64,000 nt of DNA from an uncultured Gammaproteobacteria bacterium (lineage in GTDB: Bacteria > Patescibacteriota > Microgenomatia > Levybacterales > GWA1-39-11): contig CAYRKM010000001.1 of the NCBI GenBank assembly GCA_964425075.1, positions 395,060-459,059 of the forward strand. The letters run 5' to 3'. The first letter of the stretch is position 1. Every line of letters begins with the position of its first letter. This document shows positions 2-28,487 of the stretch, piece after piece. The notes below the pieces were generated by a model, which worked only from the letters and a program-made list of their open reading frames with translations, was not told where the DNA came from and did not search any database. Made by a program: the position numbers and the translations under genes.

Positions 2-115
2 GGGACTGGAGATCATTTTGTTAGAGTGAAAGTAGAGATACCTAAAAGGCTTTCAGGTAAACAAAAAGAGCTTCTTAAAGAGTTTGAGGAATCATCCGGA
101 CGTGGCTGGTTTTAG
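2..115 (+). CDS. dnaJ: Chaperone DnaJ, C-terminal fragment (5' end outside window)
   Basis: Frame-2 translation ...VRVKVEIPKRLSGKQKELLKEFEESSGRGWF* resembles the DnaJ C-terminal tail. TAG stop at 113-115. Confidence 0.45.
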   Translation, partial: GTGDHFVRVKVEIPKRLSGKQKELLKEFEESSGRGWF

Positions 116-170
116 ACTGATATCTTGATTTAATACCTTCATTTCACCTACACTGTTAATAAGGAGTGCT

Positions 171-503
171 ATGGTTTTTTTATTGTATCCACTGTATCTA
201 ATAACATTTTGGTATGTCGACGTTGTAAGAGGTTTTATTAATTTTTTTATTAATTTTAATAGATATCTTGTTTCCTTATTATCCTTTTCAATTCTTTTAA
301 GAACTTTTTTTAAACCTCTTAAAAATGAATACCGAGATGGGTTAGTGTTATTTTCAATTATTGCAGGAATAATAATTAAGTTTATTATTTTATGTGCTTC
401 GGGTTTATTTATAGGTGTAGTTCTTATATTTGAAGTTTTTGTTATTATTTTTGTTCTGGTTTTACCTTTACTCGTATTTTTTTTAGGAAAGAAATTCTTT
501 TAA
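171..503 (+). CDS. Small very hydrophobic membrane protein, hypothetical
   Basis: 110-aa ORF with 3-4 predicted TM helices. It ends 1 nt before the clp-like gene, so it is likely co-transcribed. Confidence 0.4.
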   Translation: MVFLLYPLYLITFWYVDVVRGFINFFINFNRYLVSLLSFSILLRTFFKPLKNEYRDGLVLFSIIAGIIIKFIILCASGLFIGVVLIFEVFVIIFVLVLPLLVFFLGKKFF

Positions 504-504
504 T

Positions 505-6456: not shown

Positions 6457-6804
6457 TTATAGTTTTGTATACTTTATATGCTTGCCTCGGGCTTTTTTTA
6501 CAGGATATTTTTTAGAATTTTCTTTCATTTTTGCGTTAAAACTTCTTTTAATATCGATGCCCAAATCATAAGACATTAATAAAACCCAAGACAGCACGTC
6601 AGAAAGCTCATCAGCAATCTCTTTCTTACTGTCTTTAATATAGGCGCTTATTTCTTTTTCACTAAGCCACTTAAATTGATCAAGCACTTCAGCAGCTTCA
6701 GAAAGTAGTGCGATTGCGGAATCTTTGGGACTATGAAATTGTTTCCAGTCGCGTTCGTCTCTGAATTTAATTATTTTTTCTGTGAGTTCTTCAAGGTCTG
6801 ACAT
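6457..6804 (-). CDS. MazG-like nucleotide pyrophosphohydrolase (small all-alpha NTP-PPase)
   Basis: EExxE...E..D pattern in LSEAAEVLDQFKW ... EIADELSDVLSWVL. Confidence 0.6.
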   Translation of the reverse strand: MSDLEELTEKIIKFRDERDWKQFHSPKDSAIALLSEAAEVLDQFKWLSEKEISAYIKDSKKEIADELSDVLSWVLLMSYDLGIDIKRSFNAKMKENSKKYPVKKARGKHIKYTKL

Positions 6805-12722: not shown

Positions 12723-13934
12723 TCATTCATATCTTAATGCGTCAATTGGAGAAAGTTGCGCAGCTCTTCTTGCAGGATATAGACCAAAAACAATACCCAC
12801 GAGCGTTGATACTCCCACAGCAATTATTATTGCAGGAATGCTTACTACAAAGGGAATTCCAGCGACTAGAGATACAGCGTATGCTCCAGAAATACCCAAA
12901 ATTATTCCAATAAGTCCTCCAATAAGCGTCATCACTACGGCTTCTACTAAGAATTGAGTTAAGATATCTTTTTGTTTGGCGCCAATTGCTTTTAGTAAAC
13001 CAATTTCCTTAGTCCTTTCAGTAACAGATACAAGCATTATATTCATAACACCAACACCGCCTACAACTAAAGAAATTCCTGAGATGCCGGCTATCATGGC
13101 AGTCAGCAGTCCAGTTATGGTTTGTACAGTTGTTAGAATGTCTTGTGCGCTTGAGATTCGAAAATCATTTTCGTCTCCTTCCCCTAATTCATGTCTGTCT
13201 CGAAGGAGTGCTTCTACATCATTAATTGTTTGATTTATGGCATTTTCATCATAAACACTAATATCAATTTCCTGAAGTTTTTCTTCTCCAAGAATTTGTT
13301 TTGTAACAATATTTATTGGTATAAAAATGGAATTGTTAATAAATCCTCCAGCAAGAGCACTTGATGAATCGATAACTCCAGTCACTCTAAAAGTTCTATT
13401 ATTTATGCGAATCGTTTCCCCAACCGCCTGAGAATTTTCACCAAAAAAAGTTTTAACAACATCAGATCCTATTACTGCAATTCTTTCTCCCGCCACTTCT
13501 TGCTCAGCAGTAATAAATTCTCCTTCAATTACATCAGGGCGTAGGATTTCAAGCGCTTCAGGTGTTGAGCCATATATCAACAGATCATCAGTTTCACCAT
13601 TTGCAGTAACTTTTGATGAAGCCATGGCAAATGGGGCTACGCTTTTTATATTGGTTAAAGAGGAGTCATTTTCTATAGCCTTAAGATCATCAAATGTTAA
13701 TGCTGTTGACCCTGCGAAAGTACTAATTTGACTACTCCCTGGGTTGATTTGAAAATAATCTGTTCCAAACGAAGAAAGCTCATTTGTTATAAACGCGACA
13801 GCTCCTTGTCCAATTGAGTAAATAAGAATTACTGACGTAATACCGATGATAATTCCTATCATCGTAAGAGAAGTTCTTAGAACATTGTTTCTTAAAGCCT
13901 GTATTGCGCTTTTGAAAATTTCTTTATATTGCAT
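12723..13934 (-). CDS. ABC transporter permease, FtsX/MacB-type
   Basis: N-terminal TM, large periplasmic domain and C-terminal 3-TM FtsX-like bundle. Confidence 0.8.
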   Translation of the reverse strand: MQYKEIFKSAIQALRNNVLRTSLTMIGIIIGITSVILIYSIGQGAVAFITNELSSFGTDYFQINPGSSQISTFAGSTALTFDDLKAIENDSSLTNIKSVAPFAMASSKVTANGETDDLLIYGSTPEALEILRPDVIEGEFITAEQEVAGERIAVIGSDVVKTFFGENSQAVGETIRINNRTFRVTGVIDSSSALAGGFINNSIFIPINIVTKQILGEEKLQEIDISVYDENAINQTINDVEALLRDRHELGEGDENDFRISSAQDILTTVQTITGLLTAMIAGISGISLVVGGVGVMNIMLVSVTERTKEIGLLKAIGAKQKDILTQFLVEAVVMTLIGGLIGIILGISGAYAVSLVAGIPFVVSIPAIIIAVGVSTLVGIVFGLYPARRAAQLSPIDALRYE

Positions 13935-13974
13935 ACGATCAGTTATTAGTTGTTAGGAATAGTTATTAGTTTGA

Positions 13975-14667
13975 TCATTTCTTTTTATCAAGGACAACTT
14001 TTCCATCCACAAGCCTTATTACCCTTTTGGCATATGAGGCAATATCTTCTTCGTGTGTAATAAGTATGATAGTTCTTCCATCTTTATTAATCCCTTTAAG
14101 GAATTTCATGATTTCATGAGAAGTTTTGCTGTCTAAATTTCCAGTTGGTTCGTCTGCAAGTATTATTGAAGGATTCATGACAAGAGCCCTGGCAATTGCT
14201 ACTCTTTGGATTTGTCCTCCAGAAATGTGATTTGATAAGTTGTTTGCCTTCTCCTCAATCCCTACTAGTTTTAAAGCATCCATTGCTCGCATGTGTCGCT
14301 CTTCCGATTCAACTCCTGCATACATCATGGGTCTTTCTACATTTTTTAGAACCGTGGTTCTTGGAAGTAAATTAAAGGCTTGAAATACGAACCCAATTTC
14401 TCGATTGCGTATTTCTGCAAGTTGGTCCTCAGTGTAGCTTGAGATGTTCTTGCCTCTTAGTAAATACTTTCCTCCTGATGGTGTATCAAGCGCACCCAAT
14501 ATATGCATAAGTGTTGATTTTCCACTTCCTGAGGGGCCCATGATAGCAACGAAATCACCCTCATCTATAGTTAGAGTAATACCATTTAATGCATTGTAGT
14601 ATTCACCTTCTGCTAGGGGGTATTTTTTTGTTATGTCGGTAAGTTTGATGAGGGCATTTTTAGACAT
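13975..14667 (-). CDS. ABC transporter ATP-binding protein (MacB/LolD-type)
   Basis: Walker A GPSGSGKST, signature LSGGQIQRVAIARAL, Walker B ILADEPTGNLD. Confidence 0.9.
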   Translation of the reverse strand: MSKNALIKLTDITKKYPLAEGEYYNALNGITLTIDEGDFVAIMGPSGSGKSTLMHILGALDTPSGGKYLLRGKNISSYTEDQLAEIRNREIGFVFQAFNLLPRTTVLKNVERPMMYAGVESEERHMRAMDALKLVGIEEKANNLSNHISGGQIQRVAIARALVMNPSIILADEPTGNLDSKTSHEIMKFLKGINKDGRTIILITHEEDIASYAKRVIRLVDGKVVLDKKK

Positions 14668-14669
14668 TA

Positions 14670-15935
14670 TTAATTTCCAAATAATCCAGGACGCTTTAAC
14701 TGCTCATTAGATAAAGTTGTAATAATTTCTTGTCCCTCTGTCAGTCCTTTCAATATTTCAGTTCTATCTTCTCCTCGGACTCCTGTAATCACGGGTACAT
14801 ATTTTATTCCATCTTTAGATTTTTTATCAGGCACTCTTACCGCCTTTCCTCCCTGGTATGGTTTGATTGCTGAATTTGGAACACTTAGTACATTTTTTAC
14901 TTCTTTTGTAATTATCCTTGCGTCTGCATTCATGCCTGAACGTAGTGCCCCATCGGTATTTTGAATATTTAAATATACGTTGTAACTAATAACTCCTCCA
15001 TTGTCTGTTCCAATTTCATCAACTCGACTAACTTCTGCCCTATATTTTTTATTTAGGACCGCACTTACATCAACTTCTGCTTTTTGTCCGGGTTTTATTT
15101 TTGCAATATCAGTTTCACTAAGTGCAATTACTATTTCACTAGCAAGTTCGCCATTAGAAATTAGAAGTACTGGAGATAGGGTTGTAGTGATTGATGCAGC
15201 AGTGGCTTTTACTGGACTACCTTCCCTAATTGATAGATTTGATATTTTTCCTGCAACAGGGGATTTTACAATTGCGTTTTGTGTTGCTTGATACAAAAGC
15301 CAAGTGGAAGAGACTTGGGCTTGTCCTTGTGCAATTGCGGTTACTTGATCTTTATATTTCTTTTCAGCTGCTAACCATTGGTCTTTGGCAATCTGAAATT
15401 CTGCTGCCGTTCTGTTTTGTTCATTTGGGGTGTCATCTCCATTTTCATATGTGCCATTTGTTGCAAGATTTCTAAAAGTATCCCATTCATCATACATTGT
15501 AGCTCTTAACGTATTAGCGCTTGACTGGGCTGCATTAAGTGTTGCTTGGGCTGCAAGATAATTTGCATATGCCGCATTGGCTTGTTGTTCAGTTGCTGAG
15601 CTTTGTACGACAAAAAGTTCCTGACCCTCAACAACGGAGTCTCCATTTGATATATATGATTCTGTAACAACACCATTGGTTGGAGAATATACTTCTGTGG
15701 TGCCGCTTGCCACAATATTTCCAGTTTCAGTAACTTCTTCTGTGATATCCGTAATTTCTGTTTTTGCGGTTGTGTAAGGTGGCTTTTTAGTAAGATTCCC
15801 AATTATATTTGAAACAATAACCGCTCCAATAATAAGTAGGACAATAATAATTATTTTTCTCTTCAAAGATGCTTTGAGAAAATAACTCCAAGCTCTTGTT
15901 GGAATTGAAAGTAGTTTTTTAATTTTAGGTTTCAT
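14670..15935 (-). CDS. Efflux periplasmic adaptor (MacA/HlyD-like) of the ABC pump
   Basis: TM anchor followed by coiled-coil and barrel domains. Start likely at MKPKIKK (15935). First gene of a three-gene operon. Confidence 0.7.
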   Translation of the reverse strand: MKPKIKKLLSIPTRAWSYFLKASLKRKIIIIVLLIIGAVIVSNIIGNLTKKPPYTTAKTEITDITEEVTETGNIVASGTTEVYSPTNGVVTESYISNGDSVVEGQELFVVQSSATEQQANAAYANYLAAQATLNAAQSSANTLRATMYDEWDTFRNLATNGTYENGDDTPNEQNRTAAEFQIAKDQWLAAEKKYKDQVTAIAQGQAQVSSTWLLYQATQNAIVKSPVAGKISNLSIREGSPVKATAASITTTLSPVLLISNGELASEIVIALSETDIAKIKPGQKAEVDVSAVLNKKYRAEVSRVDEIGTDNGGVISYNVYLNIQNTDGALRSGMNADARIITKEVKNVLSVPNSAIKPYQGGKAVRVPDKKSKDGIKYVPVITGVRGEDRTEILKGLTEGQEIITTLSNEQLKRPGLFGN

Positions 15936-16040
15936 ATACATATGTATGATTATATTTCGTTTGGATTTATATAGCTAGTAATTATAACTCATGGTTTTCA
16001 ATAAAAAAGAGATAATAGTGCTTTTCTATTGCCTTATGCC

Positions 16041-17478: not shown

Positions 17479-18729
17479 ATGACAAATTTAAATAAACAAA
17501 TTTTCTCAGTAATTGCAGCTGGAACTATGGTTCTTAACATAGCTACTCCTGCATTTGCTGGAACCACTATTGAACTTTCAGGAAATGGTACTGAATCTGA
17601 TAACAAGGCTATTGTTAACCAGAACAGTAACACAACTGTTACACAATCCAATGTAGCTGATATCAAAAATAATGTTGATATTAAATCTAACACTGGAGGT
17701 AATGATGCTAATAGCAACACCGGAGGAAACGTAAAAGTAGAAACTGGAGATGCTACTTCAAATGTTACCGTTAAAAACACCGTTAACAGCAATGCTGCTA
17801 ATGTTGATTGTTGTGATACAGGAGATACTAACGTTCTAATTAGTGGAAATGGTGAAGATTCAGATAACTTTGTTAAATTGAATCAGAACCACGACACTAC
17901 ATTAACTCAAAGAAATGAGGCTAATGTAGAAAATGATGTTGACGTAGATTCTAACACCGGAGATAACGACGCAGAAGATAATACAGGTGGAGATGTTTCT
18001 ATCGAAACTGGAGATGCTAATGCAACCGTTAAAGTTGGCACAACTGCTAACGCTAACTGGGCACGTATTGGTGGATCTTCAAACGGCGGATCTCTTACAG
18101 CTAGAATCACTGGAAACGGAGAAGACAGTGACAACAAAATCAAATTAAACAATGGTGGAGATGTCACTCTAACTCAATGGAACCTTGCTGATATCGAGAA
18201 TGACGTAGATGTTGATTCCGACACCGGATACAACGACGCAAATGACAACACCGGAGGAGATGTAATGATCGAAACTGGAGATGCTGACACTGATGTAACC
18301 GTAGATAATATGGTTAACTTCAATGCAGCAGATGTTAACTGCGGATGTCTTCTTGACGATGTACTCGCAAAGATCTCTGGAAACGGAGAAGACTCAGACA
18401 ACAAGATCATTGCTAACCTTGGTGGAGACACCACGGCTACACAAGCTAATGAACTTGATTGTGCAGGACATCACGACAGCTGTGCTGACGTTGACGTAGA
18501 CGGCGACACTGGACACAATGATGCAAACGATAATACAGGGGAAGTTGATGCTGACTCTGATCCAAGCATTGAAACCGGAGACGCTGACGCAACCGTAAAA
18601 GTAAACAACTCAGGAAACAGCAATGCTTTCGGAGTTGATATGGATGATTTGGACCTTCCAGATTTTGGAGGACTTCACTTCAGCTTTAGCTTTGACTTAG
18701 GAGATCTTCTTGATCTTTTAAACGGTTAA
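17479..18729 (+). CDS. Secreted tandem-repeat protein (4 x ~90-aa repeats), paralog family member A
   Basis: Strong SD gaggaggtg. Signal peptide ...ATPAFAG. Four repeats with SGNGEDSDN...TQ.N.A.I.NDVDVDS.TG.NDA.DNTGGDV.IETGDA and terminal CC/CxC motifs. Acidic C-terminus. Confidence 0.8.
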   Translation: MTNLNKQIFSVIAAGTMVLNIATPAFAGTTIELSGNGTESDNKAIVNQNSNTTVTQSNVADIKNNVDIKSNTGGNDANSNTGGNVKVETGDATSNVTVKNTVNSNAANVDCCDTGDTNVLISGNGEDSDNFVKLNQNHDTTLTQRNEANVENDVDVDSNTGDNDAEDNTGGDVSIETGDANATVKVGTTANANWARIGGSSNGGSLTARITGNGEDSDNKIKLNNGGDVTLTQWNLADIENDVDVDSDTGYNDANDNTGGDVMIETGDADTDVTVDNMVNFNAADVNCGCLLDDVLAKISGNGEDSDNKIIANLGGDTTATQANELDCAGHHDSCADVDVDGDTGHNDANDNTGEVDADSDPSIETGDADATVKVNNSGNSNAFGVDMDDLDLPDFGGLHFSFSFDLGDLLDLLNG

Positions 18730-18824
18730 TTGGGAATTAAGTAGGGTGCTCTAGCTAGCACTTCGGCAGGAACACCCTACGAAACCCAAAATAGAATTAA
18801 GAATTAAAAATACACAAAACATAT

Positions 18825-21047
18825 ATGAATAACAAAAAAACAAGAAAATTACTGTCCACAGTATTAATACTAGTTATATTTTCAGCAAAACTTGCTTTTC
18901 CAATTGGTGCTTTAGCTCTTGATGCTCCAACTGCGCCGAGTGCACCTACTGCTCCAAGCGCTCCATCTGCTCCAACTGCGCCGAGTGCACCTACTGCTCC
19001 AAGCGCTCCATCTGCTCCAACTGCGCCAACTTCTCCCCCAGCACCTACTGCGCCAGTTGCTCCAACTGCGCCGAGTGCACCTACATTAGTAACTCCAACA
19101 CCAACACCCACAGAGACTACACAGGCGCAGCAACAATCAGCACCAAAAGAAAGCAGCAATGATATTCAAAACCAAGAAAATGAATCAAATACACAAGGTG
19201 GAAATGTGGGGGATACAACAATTGACACGGGAGATGCTACAAGTAACGGTACAATTTCAAATGTAGGAAATACAAATACAGCCTCAACTCCTGGAGGAAG
19301 TGGTGGAGGAGCCACAGTTGTAAATAGCGGAAATGGGGAGGACTCAACAAACACTGGAGCAGTAATAAGTTCAGATACTTCAACCACTAACCAGACTAAT
19401 TCAGCAACTATTAATAACACAATGAATCAAGGAGCAACAAGCGGAAATAACATTTCTGATAGTAATGTTGGAAATACAACCATTAATACTGGGGATTCAA
19501 ACACTAGCGGAACTATTATTAATGCAGTGAATACAAATGTTGATGGAATTGCAGTTGCCGAGTTCAATGTAGTAGATGATCATATTGGGGACATAATTCT
19601 CGACTTCGGAAATTCAAATTGTATCGCAGGATGCGGAGGAGAAACAGCAGTTATTAATACTGGAAATGGGGAGGACTCAACCAATACTGGAACTGTTGAC
19701 TCTACAACTACAGATAACACTTTCCAAACTAACACAGCAGGAATTGTAAATGACATGATTCTTGATTCTAACGCTGGAGACAATTCAGCATCTCACAATA
19801 CGGGTGGAGACAGCATTATAACAACGGGCGATGCTAATACGGCAGCAAATGTAATGAATTTGGTTAACAATAATATTGCAGGGAATGTGATATTGGGAGT
19901 CGTTAATATATTCGGAGACCTTATTGGAGATATCATTTTGCCAGAAAATCCATTTGCAAATTGTTCAACTTGTGTTGCAAATAACACAACAGTCGCAAAT
20001 ACAGGAAATGGCGAAGGTTCTACAAATGAAGCTACATTTACTAGCACCACAAATGATGGAACATTTCAATACAATGACGCAAGCATTCAGAATAACATAA
20101 TAAGCGATGCTAATTCAGGAGATAATTCAGCAAGCAAGAATACTGGAGGCAGTAGCAATATCGAAACTGGAGATACTAATACTGAGGTAGGAATATTGAA
20201 TATCGCAAACATGAATCTTGCGGGTGGGGATTGGTGGTTAGTAATCGTAAACGAAGCAGGACAATGGATCGGAAAGATATTGGGTGGAGACGGAAGCAAC
20301 GTAGCAGGTTCTAATGGACTTGAATTTATAGTAGATCCACTTACTGGGGCAGTAACAGCAAAGAATTCAGGAAATGGTGAAGGCTCAACCAACACAGCAG
20401 CAGTTAACCAGACAAACAATTCAACAACCAACCAAAGCAACACTGCAGCAATTACAAATAATCTTGACCTATCTGCTAATACCGGTGGAAACAGTACTAG
20501 TCACAACACTGGTGGTAACAACTCAATAGTAACTGGGGATGCTCACATAATCGCAAACATAGTTAACTTTGTTAACAATAATATAACTGGCAATGGTAGG
20601 CTCTTTGTAACAGTAGTGAATGTATTTGGAAGTTGGATGGGAGATTTGGTAACTCCTGGACAACATAAGGAAACAGCATCTGCACAAAATGGAGTAGGTG
20701 GATCAAACGGCTCAAATAATTCAACATCAACAGTTCAAGGTTCATTCGGAAGTTCGTCTAGCCTTGTTCAAGCAGAGAATGTGCTTTCACAAATCACAGG
20801 AAACGGCAACAATAACACTCTTGCATACGGAAGCGTTCAGGGTACAAACGACTCAAAACCACAAAATGATGCTACTGTTGCAAGCGTAGGGCAAGACGAC
20901 TCTGCGGCAGTAGCAGATAAGAATATCAATATTAATTTAGCATGGTTCCTTCTCTTAATTCCAGGGATGGGATTTGTGCTACTCGCAAAAAAATCGTTTG
21001 CTCCAGTTTCAAGCCTGGCGCTAAGAGGTATACATTTGTTTCTTTAA
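18825..21047 (+). CDS. Secreted tandem-repeat protein with PT/PS-rich linker, paralog B
   Basis: Signal peptide. (APTAPSAPS)n linker. Repeats contain NTGNGEDSTN, NTGGxSxIxTGDxNT and IFGDLIGDIILPE segments. C-terminal hydrophobic segment + KK. Confidence 0.8.
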   Translation: MNNKKTRKLLSTVLILVIFSAKLAFPIGALALDAPTAPSAPTAPSAPSAPTAPSAPTAPSAPSAPTAPTSPPAPTAPVAPTAPSAPTLVTPTPTPTETTQAQQQSAPKESSNDIQNQENESNTQGGNVGDTTIDTGDATSNGTISNVGNTNTASTPGGSGGGATVVNSGNGEDSTNTGAVISSDTSTTNQTNSATINNTMNQGATSGNNISDSNVGNTTINTGDSNTSGTIINAVNTNVDGIAVAEFNVVDDHIGDIILDFGNSNCIAGCGGETAVINTGNGEDSTNTGTVDSTTTDNTFQTNTAGIVNDMILDSNAGDNSASHNTGGDSIITTGDANTAANVMNLVNNNIAGNVILGVVNIFGDLIGDIILPENPFANCSTCVANNTTVANTGNGEGSTNEATFTSTTNDGTFQYNDASIQNNIISDANSGDNSASKNTGGSSNIETGDTNTEVGILNIANMNLAGGDWWLVIVNEAGQWIGKILGGDGSNVAGSNGLEFIVDPLTGAVTAKNSGNGEGSTNTAAVNQTNNSTTNQSNTAAITNNLDLSANTGGNSTSHNTGGNNSIVTGDAHIIANIVNFVNNNITGNGRLFVTVVNVFGSWMGDLVTPGQHKETASAQNGVGGSNGSNNSTSTVQGSFGSSSSLVQAENVLSQITGNGNNNTLAYGSVQGTNDSKPQNDATVASVGQDDSAAVADKNININLAWFLLLIPGMGFVLLAKKSFAPVSSLALRGIHLFL
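18925..19085 (+). repeat. 45-bp tandem repeat (2 perfect + 1-2 degenerate copies) encoding the PT-linker
   Basis: gctccaactgcgccgagtgcacctactgctccaagcgctccatct is repeated head-to-tail. Confidence 0.85.
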
Positions 21048-21051
21048 AATC

Positions 21052-22173
21052 ATGTTTAAGAAGGCAGTAATGTTCATAATCTGCCTGCCCATAGTTCACT
21101 TCGCACTTGCATTTCAAGTTAGAGCAGAAGAGATTAACCTTTCCGTTACTGGTAATGGTGAGGGTTCGTCAAATGCTACACAAGTTCAGAATAATACTAC
21201 TACGACAGTTACCCAAACCAACACAGCGGATATAAATAATAATGTAAATACGAATACTAACACTGGAGGAAATAATGCAACTGATAATAACGGAAATGCT
21301 TCAATTCAAACAGGCGATTCGACAACTTCTACTACTATTAATAATGAAAATATCAATTCAAATTCAGCAAATATTAATCCATGCTGCAATGGTAATTCTG
21401 TAAATATTGAGATTTCAGGAAATGGTAGTGATTCCAACAATTTAGTTAATGCTTCAAATAATAATACAAACAACATCTACCAAACTAACTACGCAAATAT
21501 CTACAACAACGCAATGACAAATTCTAACACCGGATACAACAGCGCAGACAGCAATATTGGAAATGTATACATAAAGACTGGAAATATTTCAGCAACTACA
21601 AAAATCAATAACAAAAATATTAATAATAGCTATGCTGCAGGAGGTAGCGTTGATTCCTCTTTTTATGCTGTTATAAAAAATAATGGAGAAGATTCTGAGA
21701 ACAAAATTATTTTCAACAAGGATAATGAAAATAATCTAATTGTTACAAATATTGCAAACATATCAAATAATGTAGAGCACAATTTGAATACTGGATACAA
21801 TAGTGCAAATGGAAATTTGGGTGACGTTGCAATAATTACAGGAGATATTACAAGCGATGTTGAAATCAATAATGAAAATATAAATAGTAGTACTGCAATT
21901 CTTCCATGCTTAACATGCGAAAAACCAGAAGATCCTGAAACTCCACCTACTAACCCACCAAGCACACCACCTACATCAGTTGGTGGTGGAGGTGGTGGTG
22001 ATGGAAGATCAGACGGTAGGTCTGATGGAAAAGGTGGTTCGGTATTGGGTGCTATGTTGCCTGCAACAGGACTTCCTTTTATGTTCTACGCTACGCTTCT
22101 TCTCTTCTTCCTTTTCCTCTCAGGTATCTTTCTGCGTTATCACTCCGGAGTTTCTCCTCCAGTTGTAGCTTAG
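21052..22173 (+). CDS. Secreted repeat protein with C-terminal LPATG sortase sorting signal, paralog C
   Basis: Signal peptide. SGNGEGSSN/NTGGNNA...IQTGDST repeats and CC/CxxC motifs. C-terminus LPATG + hydrophobic stretch + RYHSG basic tail. Confidence 0.8.
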   Translation: MFKKAVMFIICLPIVHFALAFQVRAEEINLSVTGNGEGSSNATQVQNNTTTTVTQTNTADINNNVNTNTNTGGNNATDNNGNASIQTGDSTTSTTINNENINSNSANINPCCNGNSVNIEISGNGSDSNNLVNASNNNTNNIYQTNYANIYNNAMTNSNTGYNSADSNIGNVYIKTGNISATTKINNKNINNSYAAGGSVDSSFYAVIKNNGEDSENKIIFNKDNENNLIVTNIANISNNVEHNLNTGYNSANGNLGDVAIITGDITSDVEINNENINSSTAILPCLTCEKPEDPETPPTNPPSTPPTSVGGGGGGDGRSDGRSDGKGGSVLGAMLPATGLPFMFYATLLLFFLFLSGIFLRYHSGVSPPVVA

Positions 22174-22183
22174 TATTTTAAAC

Positions 22184-22212
22184 CAAAGCCCCGCTAAGCG
22201 GGGTTTTTTCTT
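22184..22212 (+). terminator. Rho-independent terminator
   Basis: aaagccccgcTAAgcggggtttttt directly after the stop of 21052..22173. Confidence 0.8.
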
Positions 22213-22226
22213 GGTTTAAGCATAGT

Positions 22227-22255
22227 TGCATTATGTTTGTTTCGTGTTTAATATA
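22227..22255 (+). promoter_or_regulatory. Sigma70-like promoter for the sortase gene
   Basis: TTGCAT(17)TAATAT. Confidence 0.4.
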
Positions 22256-22294
22256 CCTTTATGAAGAAGCAAGGCTTGTTCACAATCAGAGATT

Positions 22295-22852
22295 ATGAGT
22301 AGAAAACTTCAGAGAAATATCGGCAACGCTCTAATGGCGTTTTCTTTTTTAGGTTTGGTATTAATTTATTACCCAATAGCAAAAGAATATTTATTTCCTC
22401 CTACTTATACCCAAGAGGAGAAGAAAAGTCTTGGATTTTCTGTCGAAATTCCATCAATTAATGTTTTTTCAAAAGTAATCGAAAATGTAGACCCTTTCAA
22501 TCAGGCAGAATACATAGAGTCCCTTAAGGACGGAGTAGCACATGCGAAAGGCACTTCTTTGCCTGGTGAAAAAGGAACTATATATCTTTTTGCTCACTCC
22601 TCGGACGTACCATGGAGAATTACAAGATATAACACTGCATTTTTTAAATTAGGACAGGTGAAAAATGGGGAGGAAATACTAATTCAACACAAAGGCAGGG
22701 AGTATAAATATAAAGTGTTTACTCAAAAAACAGTTTGGCCAAGCGAAGTTAAATACCTAACTGAGTCTCAAGGTGACGTATTAATTCTTCAAACCTGTAC
22801 ACCAGTAGGAACTTCCTTTAAAAGACTTCTTGTATTTGCAAAACCCCTCTAG
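22295..22852 (+). CDS. Sortase-family transpeptidase
   Basis: N-terminal TM anchor. Candidate catalytic His in IYLFAHS. Active-site motif LILQTCTP (TLxTC). Conserved Arg in FKRLLVFA. Confidence 0.8.
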   Translation: MSRKLQRNIGNALMAFSFLGLVLIYYPIAKEYLFPPTYTQEEKKSLGFSVEIPSINVFSKVIENVDPFNQAEYIESLKDGVAHAKGTSLPGEKGTIYLFAHSSDVPWRITRYNTAFFKLGQVKNGEEILIQHKGREYKYKVFTQKTVWPSEVKYLTESQGDVLILQTCTPVGTSFKRLLVFAKPL

Positions 22853-22896
22853 GTGTGGCGGGGGCGGACGAGCCGCCCCCATGCGCCCTTACGGGT

Positions 22897-23136
22897 TCAT
22901 TCTTGTTGTGGGTAAAATAACCTCCTTACTATGTTGAAGAGCCCGTTGAAAATCGAGATAACGATCATGATGGGCGTGCCAACATAGATAAGTATCCCAA
23001 TCCCGACGTGCTCTTTCGTAGTGGCTACAGGATGGCGGCGAAACCGCTCCCTCGTGTACTCGCTGAATGCATCTGGGATCATCAAGCAGAGTGTGATGAT
23101 TCCCCACACTGCCAAGATGATAATCAAGATTTCCAC
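22897..23136 (-). CDS. Small two-TM membrane protein, hypothetical (GTG start)
   Basis: SD GGGAGGAGGG lies 6 nt upstream of the GTG. Two hydrophobic helices. Confidence 0.5.
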   Translation of the reverse strand: MEILIIILAVWGIITLCLMIPDAFSEYTRERFRRHPVATTKEHVGIGILIYVGTPIMIVISIFNGLFNIVRRLFYPQQE

Positions 23137-23157
23137 CGGTGTCCCTCCTCCCAGAGG

Positions 23158-23175
23158 TGAATGGGTCCCGCCTCG
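23158..23175. repeat. 18-bp direct repeat copy 1 (gaatgggtcccgcctcgc) in the 5'UTR of the 2-TM gene
   Basis: Identical 18-mer also at 23445-23462. It lies 20-30 nt upstream of the SD of the minus-strand gene. Confidence 0.8.
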
Positions 23176-23206
23176 CGGCGAGACCTGCTGCGTGATGGGG
23201 TGCTGA

Positions 23207-23425
23207 CTACCGTCGGGATCTACGAGACTTTTTCTTTTTGGCGACTCGTCGTCGGAAGATCAGACAGTACGTCTCCAGACCTTTTGACGGTTTCTGTTTG
23301 GTCGGCGCAAACCCAACGAATTCCCAGCCTCCGTAGTGGGCCATTCCATCCAAATGGTCTTTGAGAAGGGCAGTCGCCCTCCATGAATCTGCACTGACTT
23401 CCTGAAGCTTGTGCTCGTATTTCAT
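23207..23425 (-). CDS. DUF4177-like small protein
   Basis: MKYEHK...GGWEFVGFAPT...YCLIFRRR resembles the DUF4177 consensus (KWEY...GWELV...YLKRP). SD GAAGGAG lies 7 nt upstream. Confidence 0.45.
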   Translation of the reverse strand: MKYEHKLQEVSADSWRATALLKDHLDGMAHYGGWEFVGFAPTKQKPSKGLETYCLIFRRRVAKKKKSRRSRR

Positions 23426-23444
23426 CGAATGCTCCTTCGAGGCG

Positions 23445-23462
23445 AATGGGTCCCGCCTCGCA
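23445..23462. repeat. 18-bp direct repeat copy 2 in the 5'UTR of the DUF4177 gene
   Basis: Identical to 23158-23175. Confidence 0.8.
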
Positions 23463-23488
23463 GCAGGACTGGCCGAGTTGTATTCTGA

Positions 23489-23656
23489 CTAGTCGTTCGG
23501 GTTGTCAAACCTTTTTCTTCTGGTGGAAGATTTTGGGTTTGACTCTCCGCGTATCTTCCTTGCTTCCTGAACAATCCCCTGAGCATGCTCAACAATGTTG
23601 GCAATGCTCTCGAGGATTCCGCCTATTCGACGGCACATTCTCACAAACCTATCCAT
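23489..23656 (-). CDS. 55-aa hypothetical small protein (helical, basic C-terminus)
   Basis: Manual translation gives MDRFVRMCRRIGGILESIANIVEHAQGIVQEARKIRGESNPKSSTRRKRFDNPND. SD AAAGGAG lies 6 nt upstream. Not in the ORF track (<60 aa). Confidence 0.35.
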   Translation of the reverse strand: MDRFVRMCRRIGGILESIANIVEHAQGIVQEARKIRGESNPKSSTRRKRFDNPND

Positions 23657-23945
23657 CGTTTCTCCTTTTTTTGAGTTTTGTCCCGCGCAATCCCGATCTT
23701 ATCGGAACTCTGCGGGGCAAAACTCTTCCACCTTCGCTAAAGCTATGGCGGATAAACAAGAATGAATTGTAAAGGTGCGTACTTTTTTGTTTAATCTGGT
23801 GAATTTAAGCACGTTAAAAACTATCAATCAAACTGAAAAGTGGATGGATTATATAGGAAAATGGATCCAAAATCAAAACTATAAGTTTAAAAACACAAAA
23901 AACCCCTCCAAATTGGAAGGGCTTTTTGTATCAACTAGAAAGAAA

Positions 23946-24539
23946 CTAGTTTGAGTTTGTTGAACCTGTAACATTTACAGTTGTAGTGGTTGTATTGTCA
24001 TCAGTATTGATGTCATTAGCGCCACCAACGTTACCGTTAGCATTATTGCCCCCAGTGTTTTGAACTGTTGTTACGTTTGTGCTAACAATTGTGGTATTTT
24101 TTTGCTTCACAATGTTTTTGCAAAGATCGATTACCAAAGCTCCATTAACTGAGCCAGCACCATTGTGATGTATGTCAACCGTTGTTTCGCCTTGTCCATC
24201 ACAACAACAGCTTTCTGCTGTGTTGGTATTGGTTCCACCTGCAACAGTCACATTTGTTGTTGTCGTATTTTTACCTGTAGTAATGGTATTTCCGCCACCA
24301 ACGTTACCGTTAGCATTATTGCCCCCAGTGTTTTGAACTGTTGTTACGTTTGTGCTAACAATTGTGGTATTTTTTTGCTTCACTTTCGATTTAGAAAGCT
24401 TTACAATAAGCGCTCCGTTGACTGAGCCAGCACCATTATTATTGATTTCAATTGGTGCAGCGAATGCTGTCGGGACTACCAAAGCCGCCATCATTGTTCC
24501 AGTTGCGATAGCTGTTGTAATTTTGTATTTAATATTCAT
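23946..24539 (-). CDS. Secreted repeat protein (2 internal repeats), paralog D
   Basis: SD aaggaggtga. Signal peptide ...VVPTAFAAP. Duplicated NNGAGSVNGAL..KQKNTTIVSTNVTTVQNTGGNNANGNVGG unit. CCCDGQ motif. Confidence 0.75.
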   Translation of the reverse strand: MNIKYKITTAIATGTMMAALVVPTAFAAPIEINNNGAGSVNGALIVKLSKSKVKQKNTTIVSTNVTTVQNTGGNNANGNVGGGNTITTGKNTTTTNVTVAGGTNTNTAESCCCDGQGETTVDIHHNGAGSVNGALVIDLCKNIVKQKNTTIVSTNVTTVQNTGGNNANGNVGGANDINTDDNTTTTTVNVTGSTNSN

Positions 24540-24604: not shown

Positions 24605-25456
24605 CTATGCTTCACAGAAAGATTCTGCTTCAGCGTTACAATAATCATTGTCTGCGCCTCCGTTGGCATCATCTGTTCCTCCATCACCTTTTAGTGAATC
24701 AGAACCTACTCCTCCAAAAAGATGGTCGCTTCCAGAAGCTCCTTTAATAGAGTCGCTTCCATTCTCGCCATACAACCAATCGTTTCCTTCATTTCCCTGA
24801 ATAGCATCACTACCATTTCCACCGAGAACTACATCATTACCGCCTTGTCCGTGTATGGCATCACTTCCATTTCCTCCTACAATACAATCATTGCCTCCCT
24901 TACCGTTAATGACGTCACTTCCTCCTTTTCCAAGGATTAAGTCAGGACCGCTAGTACCATTTAGTACTTCACTTGCTTCTGTTCCTTCAATGACGTTGTA
25001 TTCAACTTCATCATCACATTGCTCAGGAATGTTTGAAGGAGGCGTTGCCTCAATCTCATCCGCTGATCCGGCAGGCATTGTAAAGGTTGAACAATTACCA
25101 TCAGTTGTTCCGCTGATAGATCCATCGTTTGCTATTGTTCCATTACCATTTAATGTATAGCCGAAGTTTGCACCGGTATAAACAAGAGCAAAGGTAATAC
25201 TGCTTCCATCTATTGTGCCGTCAATATCCCATGTGTATGAAGCATCTGCGTCAAAATCACCTGTTCCGGCAAACACTCCGTTTACGTCCTGAGAAACCGT
25301 ATTGAGAGTGTGAGCATAGTCAGACCCTCCGCAATTAAAAACTATAGCTTTCGGTGCTGTTAATTCCCAGTTTGGGGCTGCGAATGCTGGCATTGCAACA
25401 TTTCCAAAAAGAAGAGCTGCTGCAGCTCCTGTCGTTAAAATTTTTTTTATATTCAT
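24605..25456 (-). CDS. Secreted protein with RTX-type calcium-binding beta-roll repeats
   Basis: SD gagggggtga. Signal peptide MNIKKILTTGAAAALLFGNVAMPAFAAP. Multiple GGxGxD nonapeptides (GGNGSDAIHGQGGNDVVLGGNGSDAIQG...). Confidence 0.75.
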   Translation of the reverse strand: MNIKKILTTGAAAALLFGNVAMPAFAAPNWELTAPKAIVFNCGGSDYAHTLNTVSQDVNGVFAGTGDFDADASYTWDIDGTIDGSSITFALVYTGANFGYTLNGNGTIANDGSISGTTDGNCSTFTMPAGSADEIEATPPSNIPEQCDDEVEYNVIEGTEASEVLNGTSGPDLILGKGGSDVINGKGGNDCIVGGNGSDAIHGQGGNDVVLGGNGSDAIQGNEGNDWLYGENGSDSIKGASGSDHLFGGVGSDSLKGDGGTDDANGGADNDYCNAEAESFCEA

Positions 25457-25865
25457 TTTTTTCACCCCCTCTCGTGTAAAATCGCCCTGCCATTCCATAT
25501 GAACTTTCTAAGCATTTACTGCATCAATGCAGGCACAAAAAAACAACCATATCGGTTGTTTAGCAATTTGTGTTGTATAAAAATTTCATAGGCAGGTTCA
25601 TGTTTTTTCTCCTGCCTCTTCTCGCGAAAGCTCAAATTAGGCAGGTTAAATTAGCTACTGCCCTTTATCTAAAAGAAGATTTAGGCAGATTCAAATAAAA
25701 AAATAAGGAATAACGCTTAAGTGGGCAAGAATGAATACTTAGCAATTAACAGAGTATTGTATTAGTAGTTTTATTAAAAAAACGTTGATGTGTCAAGGTA
25801 AGCAAAATGGATACATTTGGATTAAAAAGTGTCAATATTCTTTTCACGGTTTTAGAGTGGTTAGC

Positions 25866-27005: not shown

Positions 27006-28487
27006 ATGGAAGATAAGAAACAATTTACACAATACCCTCCAGTCGTATCTGTTTTAGGTCATGTAGACCACGGAAAAACCACACTTCTTGACGCTATCCG
27101 AAAAAGTAATATCGCATCAGGCGAGGCTGGTGGAATTACTCAATCTATTGGTGCTTCAAGCATTGAAATTGATTCCTTCGATTCTTCTCAGGGCAAGCAT
27201 GAAGGCAAAAAAAGGTGGATTACCTTTATCGATACACCCGGTCATGAGGCTTTTTCTAATATGCGCTCCCACGGAGTGTCAGCATCAGATGTGGTTCTTC
27301 TAATAGTTGCAGCAGATGATGGGATAAAGCCTCAAACCATAGAGTCAATTGAAAAAATTAAAGCATCCAATCTTCCTTATATCGTTGTAATTACAAAAAT
27401 GGATGCTCCTGGAGCTGAAATTGAGAAAGTAAAACAGCAATTATTAAAAGAACAAGTTTTGCTTGAAGGACTTGGTGGAGACGTGCCATATATAGGAGTG
27501 AGTGCAAAAACCGGAGAAAAAGTTTCTGATCTTCTAGATCTTATCGCAATTGTTTATGACATAAGAGAAATTAAAAAAAGCGAGACTGAGGACTTTTTGG
27601 GTGTTGTAATTGAGGCAAAGCTTGATAAAAGACGGGGGATTTTAGCATCAGTTATTGTTAAAGCAGGCAAACTTGCAGTTGGAGAAAAAATATATTTTGA
27701 GGCAAAAGAAGTTGGAAAAGTGCGGGCACTGGTTGATACATTTGGAAAACAGGTTAAAGAGGCTCTGCCAGGGGATGCGGTTGAGATTTTGGGGTCTACT
27801 GAGGTGCTCTCTGCAGGTTCACTTCTTGCCACAAAACCCGGAGCTCTTGTTGTTGCACAGGCAAAAGAAGTAGCTAAATATACCTCAGCTGATTTAATGA
27901 AGCATTTAGCTGAAATAAAAGAGGAAAAAGTAAATATTGTTCTTAAAACCCACACAAGTGGTGAATTGGAGGCTATATCAGAGTCACTCCCTGAGGATGT
28001 TCAGGTAATTTTTGAGGGAAGAGGAGATATTGGAGTATCAGACGTTATGATGGCCAAAGACTTTAATGCAATTGTTGTCGGCTTTAATGTAGATATTGAG
28101 AAACAGGCGAAAATTCTTGCAGACACACAGGGAACTTTCTACAGAAATTACACGATTATCTATAACCTACTTGATGAATTAGCAGATGCAGTTACTCTTA
28201 TCAAAGAGCGAGCTCAGCGTAAAATATTTGGAAAAGGACAAATTTTGGCGGTATTTGAAGGTAATGAAGGTAAAATTCTTGGAGTAAGGGTTGATGAAGG
28301 AAAGCTTAAAGTTGGAGATACAATTGTAATTACTAGGGGAGTAAATGAAACTTCATCTTCAAAAATAATGTCACTAAAGCAAGGTAAAAACGATATTAAA
28401 GAAATAGGAAAAGGGAATGAATGCGGAATTATGATTGACCCTATGGTTGACTTTACTATAGGGGATATGGTAATATCCTGGGGCTAA
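27006..28487 (+). CDS. infB: Translation initiation factor IF-2 (short form without long N-terminal extension)
   Basis: G1 motif GHVDHGKTTLLD, G3 motif DTPGHEAF, G4 motif TKMD. Confidence 0.9.
   Translation: MEDKKQFTQYPPVVSVLGHVDHGKTTLLDAIRKSNIASGEAGGITQSIGASSIEIDSFDSSQGKHEGKKRWITFIDTPGHEAFSNMRSHGVSASDVVLLIVAADDGIKPQTIESIEKIKASNLPYIVVITKMDAPGAEIEKVKQQLLKEQVLLEGLGGDVPYIGVSAKTGEKVSDLLDLIAIVYDIREIKKSETEDFLGVVIEAKLDKRRGILASVIVKAGKLAVGEKIYFEAKEVGKVRALVDTFGKQVKEALPGDAVEILGSTEVLSAGSLLATKPGALVVAQAKEVAKYTSADLMKHLAEIKEEKVNIVLKTHTSGELEAISESLPEDVQVIFEGRGDIGVSDVMMAKDFNAIVVGFNVDIEKQAKILADTQGTFYRNYTIIYNLLDELADAVTLIKERAQRKIFGKGQILAVFEGNEGKILGVRVDEGKLKVGDTIVITRGVNETSSSKIMSLKQGKNDIKEIGKGNECGIMIDPMVDFTIGDMVISWG

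Follow-up and report, generated by a model that had tools for sequence, protein, structure and literature searches.

Introduction

Phage morons, known from the literature on lambdoid phages, are extra transcription units inserted between two genes. A unit of comparable build is described here from a bacterial chromosome. It was found in a window of 64 kb (the whole stretch of DNA that was analyzed, 64,000 nt from contig CAYRKM010000001.1; positions are counted from its first nucleotide), where it occupies 22853 to about 23895 on the minus strand between a sortase gene and a gene for a repeat surface protein, and it carries three small open reading frames (ORFs). The host is placed below in the candidate phyla radiation (CPR, Patescibacteria). 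These bacteria have tiny genomes, are attached to other cells, and are almost uncultured, and little is known about how they acquire and vary accessory functions. On balance, it is probable that the inserted unit, called the cassette hereafter, is one allele of a hypervariable slot in which moron-like accessory mini-operons are exchanged between strains.

The cassette is similar to morons in a predicted promoter of its own, its own end hairpin, its deviant composition, and its accessory, strain-variable cargo. It is inserted between genes that are adjacent in relatives, the slot being empty in the related loci L007, L009, L012, and L014. Among the features of a moron unit, the putative promoter is conserved in four loci, and the 3' hairpin, a putative terminator without a U-tract, in seven. 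The cassette differs from morons in that it lies in a bacterial core chromosome instead of a phage, with no phage similarity found. The use of one frame for different cargos in one fixed slot is a feature outside the moron concept.

Integron cassettes and clusters of attC sites lacking integron integrases (CALIN) likewise consist of small, often orphan foreign genes, each followed by a hairpin-forming repeat, and they likewise combine a fixed upstream promoter with cargo that is swapped between strains. Unlike them, the present cassette has no integrase, and its hairpins, as read from the sequence, do not contain the R''/R' cores (RYYYAAC/GTTRRRY). Here, one large conserved hairpin stands upstream of the genes, and the intercistronic repeats are GNRA hairpins of 8–9 bp, not attC sites. 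An integron array was considered and rejected, as no recombinase was found among the 27 window ORFs scanned and the attC cores are absent. Mobile insertion cassettes and miniature inverted-repeat transposable elements share with the cassette passenger genes without a transposase, short inverted repeats, and presence or absence among strains. The cassette differs from these by its single site, with no target duplication, no other copies, and no cognate insertion sequence seen.

In Thermococcales, an Ig-protein module was reported as a hypervariable conflict or defense islet beside surface-protein genes (PMC8416519). The module is like the present slot in that a conserved anchor gene is followed by small downstream genes in unique, strain-variable combinations. 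The cassette differs in that its cargo is much smaller and no known defense or conflict domain was detected in it, and a conserved frame of RNA and promoter is not known to be described for the Thermococcales modules. A literature search for a described equivalent in CPR bacteria found none.

Occupied and Empty Slots in Related Loci

Metagenome contigs at JGI were scanned with the sortase protein, and 16 loci with 30–72% identity were obtained. The slot is empty in L007, L014, and L012, where 60–90 nt with a single terminator are followed by the convergent gene for a repeat surface protein of about 200 aa. It is likewise empty in L009, as judged by the GC profile and tblastx. In L008, L010, L011, L013, L015, and L016, which are public metagenome contigs from several projects, the slot is filled with an insert of 0.6–1.8 kb, with 45–57% GC and ORFs on the minus strand. 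All seven cassettes (that of the window and these six) are at one genomic site and in a single orientation relative to the sortase gene. Filled and empty sites were both found in each of two sortase clades. The first-pass annotation of this DNA, made from the sequence alone, had described a GC-rich island inserted into the sortase locus and had suggested a synteny comparison; four relatives are empty at this position, and six have other GC-rich cassettes.

The closest pair is L011 and L012. They are 100% identical over 1100 nt, and 14 mismatches follow within the final 36 nt of the sortase gene. Beyond the gene, a cassette is present in L011 and absent from L012. The pair represents a strain-level presence/absence polymorphism, in which the breakpoint falls within the 3'-terminal part of the sortase gene.

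The limits of the unit in the window are based on the empty sites L007, L014, and L012, and on the alignment of the right end with L013 and L010:

22853–23895, minus strand: whole inserted unit, composed of a GC-rich body and an AT-rich part with promoter and leader; flanked by the stop codon of the sortase gene on one side and by the ancestral bidirectional terminator on the other
23904–23921, minus strand: ancestral terminator of the 197-aa surface-protein gene, at the cassette boundary and outside it; its homologue is the one terminator present at empty sites

At the right junction, the sequence was compared with the 3' end of the sortase gene for an att-like duplication, and a target duplication was rejected; the similarity, to the ancestral terminator, is only of the AAAACC type and is shared by the empty sites.

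The part from 22853 to 23760 has 52.3% GC, against a mean of 37.6% (standard deviation 3.0%) for 900-nt windows over the 64 kb (z = 5.0). It is the most GC-rich 900-nt stretch of the window, and the GC jump noticed in the first-pass annotation was thus reproduced by calculation. The inserted unit exceeds this GC-rich part; it reaches about 23895 and takes in the AT-rich promoter and leader (26% GC). The richest parts of the island are the non-coding hairpin segments (60–77% GC), while the three ORFs have 47–51% GC.

An abrupt GC jump could also result from an assembly chimera or a contaminating fragment, and it is the sole point in favor of this explanation. A contig of the Logan assembly from the run SRR14271365 is 100% identical to the window from 19029 to 24049, with both junctions included, and it is the only Logan contig that was reached with exact-protein look-ups. 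Because this independent assembly is identical across both junctions, and because equivalent inserts are present in six other contigs, the artifact that the first-pass annotation had thought worth excluding is extremely improbable.

The deviant composition is also seen in the codons. In all seven cassette loci, the GC content at third codon positions (GC3) is 0.51–0.62 in the cargo genes versus 0.25–0.42 in the adjacent sortase gene. The cargo itself differs from locus to locus. The window cargo has nothing in common with any of the six other cassettes, and the cargos of the relatives are mosaic among themselves. The commonest cargo of the related cassettes is a protein with the C-terminal domain of the RNA polymerase alpha subunit (alpha-CTD, PF03118), which scores above the Pfam cutoff in four loci, either stand-alone or N-terminally extended:

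L008 1932–2273, minus strand: alpha-CTD cargo
L010 7446–8183, minus strand: alpha-CTD cargo
L011 1732–2064, minus strand: alpha-CTD cargo
L013 6685–7314, minus strand: alpha-CTD cargo

As a free domain, the alpha-CTD could serve transcription factors as a decoy or an adaptor. Among the other cargos, a family of about 100 aa is common to L010 and L016, paralogues are present in L008, a zinc-ribbon protein is encoded in L015, and small membrane proteins are found in L008, L011, and L015.

These data bear on the idea that the cassette is a resident ancestral operon, which diverges fast, was lost in some lineages, and keeps its GC content by selection for RNA structure. The same site and frame in both sortase clades and in the window, and the alpha-CTD gene in four cassettes, agree with this idea, and so does the folding of the island RNA. 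Compared with 60 shuffles, the 918-nt island folds with z = −6.5 on the minus strand and z = −5.4 on the plus strand, while three typical host stretches gave −1.4 to +0.7 and a repeat-protein gene (18200–19100) gave −4.2. Most of the folding signal comes from the non-coding pieces, and these have the highest GC content as well. However, the GC excess peaks at third codon positions of unrelated cargo genes at all seven loci, and the window cargo is unlike that of every other cassette. In L011 and L012, moreover, the flanks are identical while the whole cassette differs, with an abrupt divergence in the sortase 3' end. An ancestral operon is thus regarded as rather unlikely.

Frame Shared by the Cassettes

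The seven cassettes are a family with a conserved promoter/end frame and swapped cargo, which was missed in the first-pass annotation. Judged from the aligned loci, unrelated cargos share one frame composed of a predicted promoter, an AT-rich leader, inverted boxes, and a G-rich 3' hairpin. In the window, its parts are as follows:

23848–23876, minus strand: predicted sigma-70-type promoter, TTGATT-17-TATAAT
23755–23778, no strand assigned: right inverted box, located in the leader (minus-strand sequence GCACCTTTACAATTCATTCTTGTT)
22883–22907, no strand assigned: left inverted box, with the core TTCATTCTTGTT at 22896–22907, overlapping the stop codon of the 79-aa ORF
22859–22879, minus strand: 3' end hairpin, GGGGGCGG-ACGAG-CCGCCCCC, then an ACAC-like tail

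The promoter could be aligned in four loci (the window, L008, L010, and L013), with TTGA at the −35 position, a spacer of 17 nt, and a perfect TATAAT. Transcription would start near 23841. Downstream of the promoter, the AT-rich leader is followed by the box GCACCTT...CATTCTTG and then, where it is present, by a hairpin of 53 nt.

At the opposite end, a GC hairpin had been recognized in the first-pass annotation, and it was recovered by folding at 22859–22879. Hairpins of the form GGGGGAGG...CCTCCCCC are located at the same end in L008, L010, L011, L013, L015 (folded), and L016 (sequence read). The G-rich 3' hairpin with an ACAC-like tail is thereby present in all seven cassettes. Probably it marks the end of the mini-operon and, in addition, caps the sortase gene that converges on it.

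The two boxes contain a 12-nt perfect inverted repeat (22896–22907/23755–23766; p~0.003 versus shuffles). When they are extended by eye, 20 of 25 positions match. CAYATTCTTG-like boxes were found at both ends in L008, L010, L011, and L015. The support for inversion is p~0.013 in L010 and p~0.006 in L015, and weaker in L008 and L013; in L011 the boxes are present. The inverted copy of the leader box is placed just inside the 3' G-rich hairpin, and the box sequence itself is conserved between cassettes, beyond the complementarity within each of them. Through the boxes, the two ends of the mRNA might pair with each other; alternatively, the boxes could be DNA sites at which a recombinase encoded elsewhere inserts, excises, or inverts the cassette.

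If the latter applies, the cassette may be a non-autonomous mobile or invertible cassette, in which the boxes and the end hairpins serve as sites for a recombinase or transposase acting in trans; comparable elements are mobile insertion cassettes, hairpin-ended elements of the IS200/IS605 type, and invertons. The perfect inverted repeat that bounds the cargo, the similar boxes in relatives, and the conservation of the box sequence across cassettes are consistent with this explanation, and so is the difference of near-identical strains by cassette presence. The cassette also shows a feature of non-autonomous transposons, including those of the IS200/IS605 type, since inverted repeats and hairpins are present at both ends on the same strand, and the one-strand folding preference of the leader hairpin (see below) fits single-stranded DNA sites too. 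On the other hand, all seven cassettes are at one site and in one orientation, and no target-site duplication was read at the junctions. In the 64-kb window, searched with filters off, and in 150 kb of sequence from related loci, the leader hairpin had no second copy. The first-pass annotation had listed neither integrase nor transposase in the island, and indeed no recombinase is encoded in the cassette or among the scanned window ORFs, and no invertase was seen. Both the promoter and the end hairpin lie outside the boxes, which therefore do not bound the whole insert. This explanation is considered quite unlikely. An inverton, which is recognized by the occurrence of both orientations and a nearby invertase, is not supported by the cassettes at hand (same orientation in 7/7 cassettes, no invertase seen).

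Predicted Hairpins of the Cassette RNA

Three further hairpins were predicted inside the cassette:

23673–23725, minus strand: leader hairpin of 53 nt, with 14 bp, a 2x2 internal loop, 9 bp, and a 3-nt loop, 8 nt upstream of the first Shine-Dalgarno (SD) sequence
23450–23469, minus strand: intercistronic hairpin 2 with a GCGA tetraloop, inside the repeat copy at 23439–23478
23164–23185, minus strand: intercistronic hairpin 1 with a GCGA tetraloop, inside the 40-nt repeat copy at 23154–23193

The leader hairpin folds with z = −5.3 versus shuffles and occurs once per locus. A covariance model was built from three hairpin copies, and matches were then found in L008 and L011 too, which brings the number to five of the seven cassettes (the window, L008, L010, L011, and L013). 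In the alignment of the five sequences, 95.5% of the cells are paired, versus 75% in shuffles and 35–54% when the partners are slid. Both sides have changed in 14 of the 23 pairs, and none of 500 shuffles reached such a value. When the hairpin is read on the minus strand, there are 12 G-U pairs and 5 mismatches; on the plus strand, there are 2 G-U pairs and 15 mismatches (binomial p = 0.0065). This bias indicates that the hairpin is read from the strand that is transcribed, either as RNA or, conceivably, in the form of single-stranded DNA. No Rfam family matched it. The 53-nt leader hairpin, which is supported by covariation, is considered a new RNA motif outside the Rfam families. Most likely it acts as RNA, as a site of processing, stability, or regulator binding. 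RNase III substrates include structures of this kind, with a stem of 25 bp and an internal loop.

Between the leader box and the 53-nt hairpin, the window has an extra hairpin of 29 nt (23726–23754, minus strand, UCCGCC...GGUGGA). It is specific to the window and absent in the aligned leaders of L008, L010, and L013.

The 18-nt core of the 40-nt repeat, GAATGGGTCCCGCCTCGC, occurs twice in the window and nowhere else there. The 5' arm of hairpin 2 differs from the other copy by C/U changes only, by which the pairing with G is kept. A search of metagenome and genome contigs with a 26-nt intergenic repeat gave 0 matches. In the spacers at 23426–23488 and 23137–23206 (minus strand), an SD-like GAGGCG and an anti-SD-like CGCCUC/CACCUC are placed beside the true SD sequence. 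These motifs can form hairpins that exclude the stem of the GCGA-tetraloop hairpin and are excluded by it, and it may be speculated that they serve for translational coupling or as a switch.

GC-rich islands in AT-rich genomes are often RNA genes. Together with the very strong folding z-scores and the many ORFs on both strands, this speaks for a large structured non-coding RNA, in which the ORFs would be by-products of a GC-rich sequence. In Rfam 15, 0 matches were obtained at the gathering threshold over the window, and in 22600–24000 even E <= 10 returned noise only; a tRNA/tmRNA scan also found nothing. The three optimally spaced SD sequences and the codon-position GC pattern described below, as well as the transmembrane helices and DUF4177-like motifs of the products, argue against this explanation. 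The homologous position in relatives clearly encodes proteins with Pfam domains. A non-coding RNA is thus highly unlikely.

Predicted Small Proteins of the Cassette

The ORFs of the cassette are as follows:

23489–23656, minus strand: 55-aa ORF, ATG start, SD sequence AAGGAG; helical, C-terminal half basic; orphan
23207–23425, minus strand: 72-aa ORF, ATG start, SD sequence GAAGGAG; DUF4177-like beta-alpha-beta-beta, polybasic tail KKKKSRRSRR
22897–23136, minus strand: 79-aa ORF, GTG start, SD sequence GGGAGGAGGG; predicted two-pass membrane protein; orphan

The positions and SD sequences of these three ORFs, which the first-pass annotation had named, agree with the ORF list and the sequence. 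The spacing from the SD sequence to the start codon is 5–8 nt. In the relatives, GCCTGAGGAGGC stands before most cargo genes, and in the window the two internal genes have the related CGCCTCGAAGGAGC and CACCTCTGGGAGGAGGG at this place.

Because GC-rich DNA is poor in stop codons and therefore contains many ORFs on both strands, the coding claim was tested in four ways: the ORF count in shuffles, the GC content by codon position, the hydrophobic helices of the 79-aa ORF, and the DUF4177 alignment of the 72-aa ORF. Three non-overlapping ORFs of at least 50 aa, each preceded by an SD sequence and all on one strand, are expected with P = 0.0075 (2000 dinucleotide shuffles of the island). The three ORFs pooled have GC3 0.58 > GC1 0.48 > GC2 0.40, and the sortase gene has a GC3 of 0.27. 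The plus-strand ORFs of the island have a flat GC content across codon positions. The hydropathy of the 79-aa ORF reveals two hydrophobic segments at residues ~1–23 and ~43–67. In addition, the 55-aa ORF was called as a gene on the Logan contig.

To our knowledge, the DUF4177 family has no established function. The resemblance of the 72-aa ORF to this family, proposed in the first-pass annotation, is only partly supported. The Pfam profile PF13783 aligned with the ORF at 14.0 bits (E = 0.059; residues 32–60 on profile positions 36–65), below the gathering threshold of 25 bits. With phmmer, a search of 1.84 billion representative proteins returned one spurious match to a repeat protein and no members of the DUF4177 family. 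The other side of the evidence is PEG446, a DUF4177 protein of 66 aa with reported antibacterial activity, whose sequence was taken from that report (PMC11322243). With BLASTP, residues 1–63 of the 72-aa ORF aligned with residues 1–66 of PEG446 over the full length (28% identity, pairwise E = 9e-6). Three motifs are in register (MKYEHK/GWEFVG/LIFRRR in the 72-aa ORF versus MKWEYK/GWELVG/IVFKRQ in PEG446). An AlphaFold2 model of low confidence (pLDDT 70) has the matching beta-alpha-beta-beta topology. The 72-aa ORF thus shares with DUF4177 proteins the length class, the three motifs, and the predicted topology, while it differs from them by its extra polybasic tail, its score below the cutoff, and its lack of family members in phmmer. 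Since the profile score is below the cutoff and PEG446 is nevertheless aligned over its full length, the protein is designated as DUF4177-like, not as a member of the family.

Homologues of the three proteins were searched widely. Word-indexed searches against 5.8 billion clusters retrieved only the match of the 55-aa protein to itself, and sequence searches of the three ORFs in PHROGs, PADLOC, NCBIfam, and PDB retrieved nothing (0 matches in PADLOC). For toxin, antitoxin, and defense families, nothing was found below E = 0.03 in Pfam, NCBIfam, and PHROGs. Phage and plasmid searches at the DNA level and with tblastn yielded nothing but one match at E = 0.5. IMG/VR was scanned with the three ORFs, a cargo protein with an alpha-CTD, two hairpin patterns, and the 18-nt repeat, and no true matches resulted; four pattern matches failed the covariance model. 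The horizontally acquired micro-module of the first-pass annotation therefore stands with regard to its foreign composition, its three plausible small genes, and its accessory insertion, whereas conservation of the ORFs elsewhere was not borne out in any protein or DNA collection searched. The first-pass annotation had described DUF4177 as enriched in high-GC Actinobacteria; nothing points to an actinobacterial donor.

An immunity- or toxin-antitoxin-like function had also been suggested. The corresponding explanation is a toxin-antitoxin, bacteriocin/immunity, or other two-partner cassette, in which the membrane protein and the DUF4177-like protein would be an effector/immunity pair. A small two-pass membrane protein together with small soluble basic proteins in a strain-variable locus would suit such a cassette, as would the antibacterial activity of PEG446 and the recurrence of small membrane proteins in the cassettes of L008, L011, and L015. 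Nevertheless, the PADLOC, PHROGs, NCBIfam, and PDB searches gave this function no support, the DUF4177 membership is below the threshold, and neither a secretion leader nor processing machinery is present. Most of the related cassettes carry alpha-CTD DNA-binding proteins instead. A two-partner cassette is therefore judged improbable.

Possible Mode of Cassette Exchange

From the observed composition, ORFs with SD sequences, frame, hairpin covariation on the transcribed strand, presence/absence, and cargo swapping, the following course can be proposed for the moron-like mini-operon. The sigma-70 promoter at 23876–23848 would drive a minus-strand mRNA with the conserved hairpin in its 5' leader. 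The 55-aa basic helical protein, the 72-aa DUF4177-like protein, and the 79-aa two-pass protein would be translated from strong SD sequences. The duplicated GNRA-tetraloop hairpins would separate the cistrons, and the G-rich hairpin at 22859–22879 would close the transcript, backing onto the sortase stop codon. The cassettes would be swapped between strains by recombination through the conserved frame and the flanks, without a recombinase of their own, and the breakpoint of L011/L012 in the sortase 3' end fits such an exchange. The cargo would be drawn from a common, GC-richer mobile gene pool.

Tiny membrane proteins and stand-alone alpha-CTD proteins recur in this strain-variable slot, which adjoins sortase and surface-protein genes. 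Their recurrence suggests envelope-related or transcription-modulating accessory roles, perhaps in conflict or host interaction. That the three orphan proteins of the window work together as a strain-specific accessory module, either at the cell envelope or in some conflict (with a phage or a competitor, or in the interaction with the host cell), is only a guess, and the weakest part of the proposal.

Several points weigh against this course. Recombination is deduced from one strain pair, whose right junction is off the contig, and the common donor pool was not found in the phage, plasmid, and IMG/VR searches. None of the three window ORFs has a homologue in the collections searched, so that their expression and function are argued from sequence features. 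The gene finder on the Logan contig missed two of the three, and the plus strand of the island has long ORFs too, of 108 and 67 aa. The 3' hairpin has no U-tract, and its function as a terminator is for this reason a proposal. The conserved inverted boxes are not accounted for by this course, and they fit a trans-acting recombinase as well as homologous exchange.

A bolder possibility is considered unlikely. The slot may be the expression site of an undescribed CPR cassette system, in which the fixed promoter, the structured leader RNA, the inverted boxes, and the G-rich hairpin would be a docking frame for small genes from a GC-richer mobile pool. A recombinase encoded elsewhere would capture, swap, or flip the small genes in the frame, and would thereby diversify small envelope-associated or transcription-modulating proteins beside the genes with which the symbiont contacts its host. 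Such a system would be functionally like integrons and shufflons, but mechanistically distinct from them.

Next to the sortase and surface-protein genes, the locus forms a defined hot spot, at which GC-rich mini-operons built on one frame differ from strain to strain. It offers three testable objects: the leader hairpin, the end boxes, which perhaps mark recombination, and a pool of orphan small proteins including the alpha-CTD proteins, which may tune transcription or the envelope. Directed exchange would make the slot a gene-capture site of a new kind. With plain homologous exchange, it would still be a clear case of moron-like accessory units in the streamlined chromosome of a symbiont.

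Neighboring Surface-Protein Locus and Host

The neighbors of the locus are core genes (NusA, a short IF-2, PNPase, MacAB/HlyD, and AcrB), and the IF-2 is 59% identical to that of Candidatus Levyibacteriota metagenome-assembled genomes (MAGs). The DNA is thus assigned to the chromosome of a Levyibacteriota-like CPR bacterium. The IF-2 (27006–28487, plus strand) has 493 aa and no long N-terminal region, consistent with a reduced CPR genome.

The surface-protein locus includes the following genes:

18825–21047, plus strand
21052–22173, plus strand
23946–24539, minus strand
24605–25498, minus strand

The Asn/Thr/Gly-rich repeat proteins of this locus had no Pfam match. The C-terminus of the 373-aa repeat protein has LPATG, a transmembrane helix, and a basic tail, and this protein is likely a sortase substrate. 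The 197-aa protein is a secreted, Cys-containing protein with two repeats, and it is conserved as a neighbor of the sortase gene in every relative. RTX calcium-binding repeats occur in a 297-aa protein that is encoded in the window and that L007 and L014 lack. The second most GC-rich stretch of the window (18200–19100, plus strand, 44–50% GC) is inside the gene for the 740-aa repeat protein; its GC and folding signals are probably due to internal repeats of the gene rather than to an RNA element.

In the Levyibacteriota MAG contig L004, HlyD/ABC/FtsX (MacAB-like) genes (20–2188, plus strand) abut NusA. In the window, the MacAB-like genes (12723–15941, minus strand) are inverted, and the surface-protein/sortase locus of about 10 kb is placed between them and NusA. 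This inversion and separation indicate that the region of 16–25.5 kb is variable at a deeper level.

Two further observations concern the surroundings of the slot in relatives. In L010, a 70-aa ORF with two transmembrane segments (6571–6783, plus strand) is located in AT-rich DNA between the sortase gene and the cassette, on the strand opposite to the cassette genes. A repeat like repetitive extragenic palindromes is present beside the sortase gene in L008 (208–255), L011 (540–590), L012 (5953–6000), L010 (6802–6975), L015 (5685–5939), and L016 (~480–600), while none adjoins the sortase gene of the window. This repeat yields pseudo-ORFs, such as 'MLRFARNDK...' and '...CDFTPSS...SLRGIPRLHCSRKI'.

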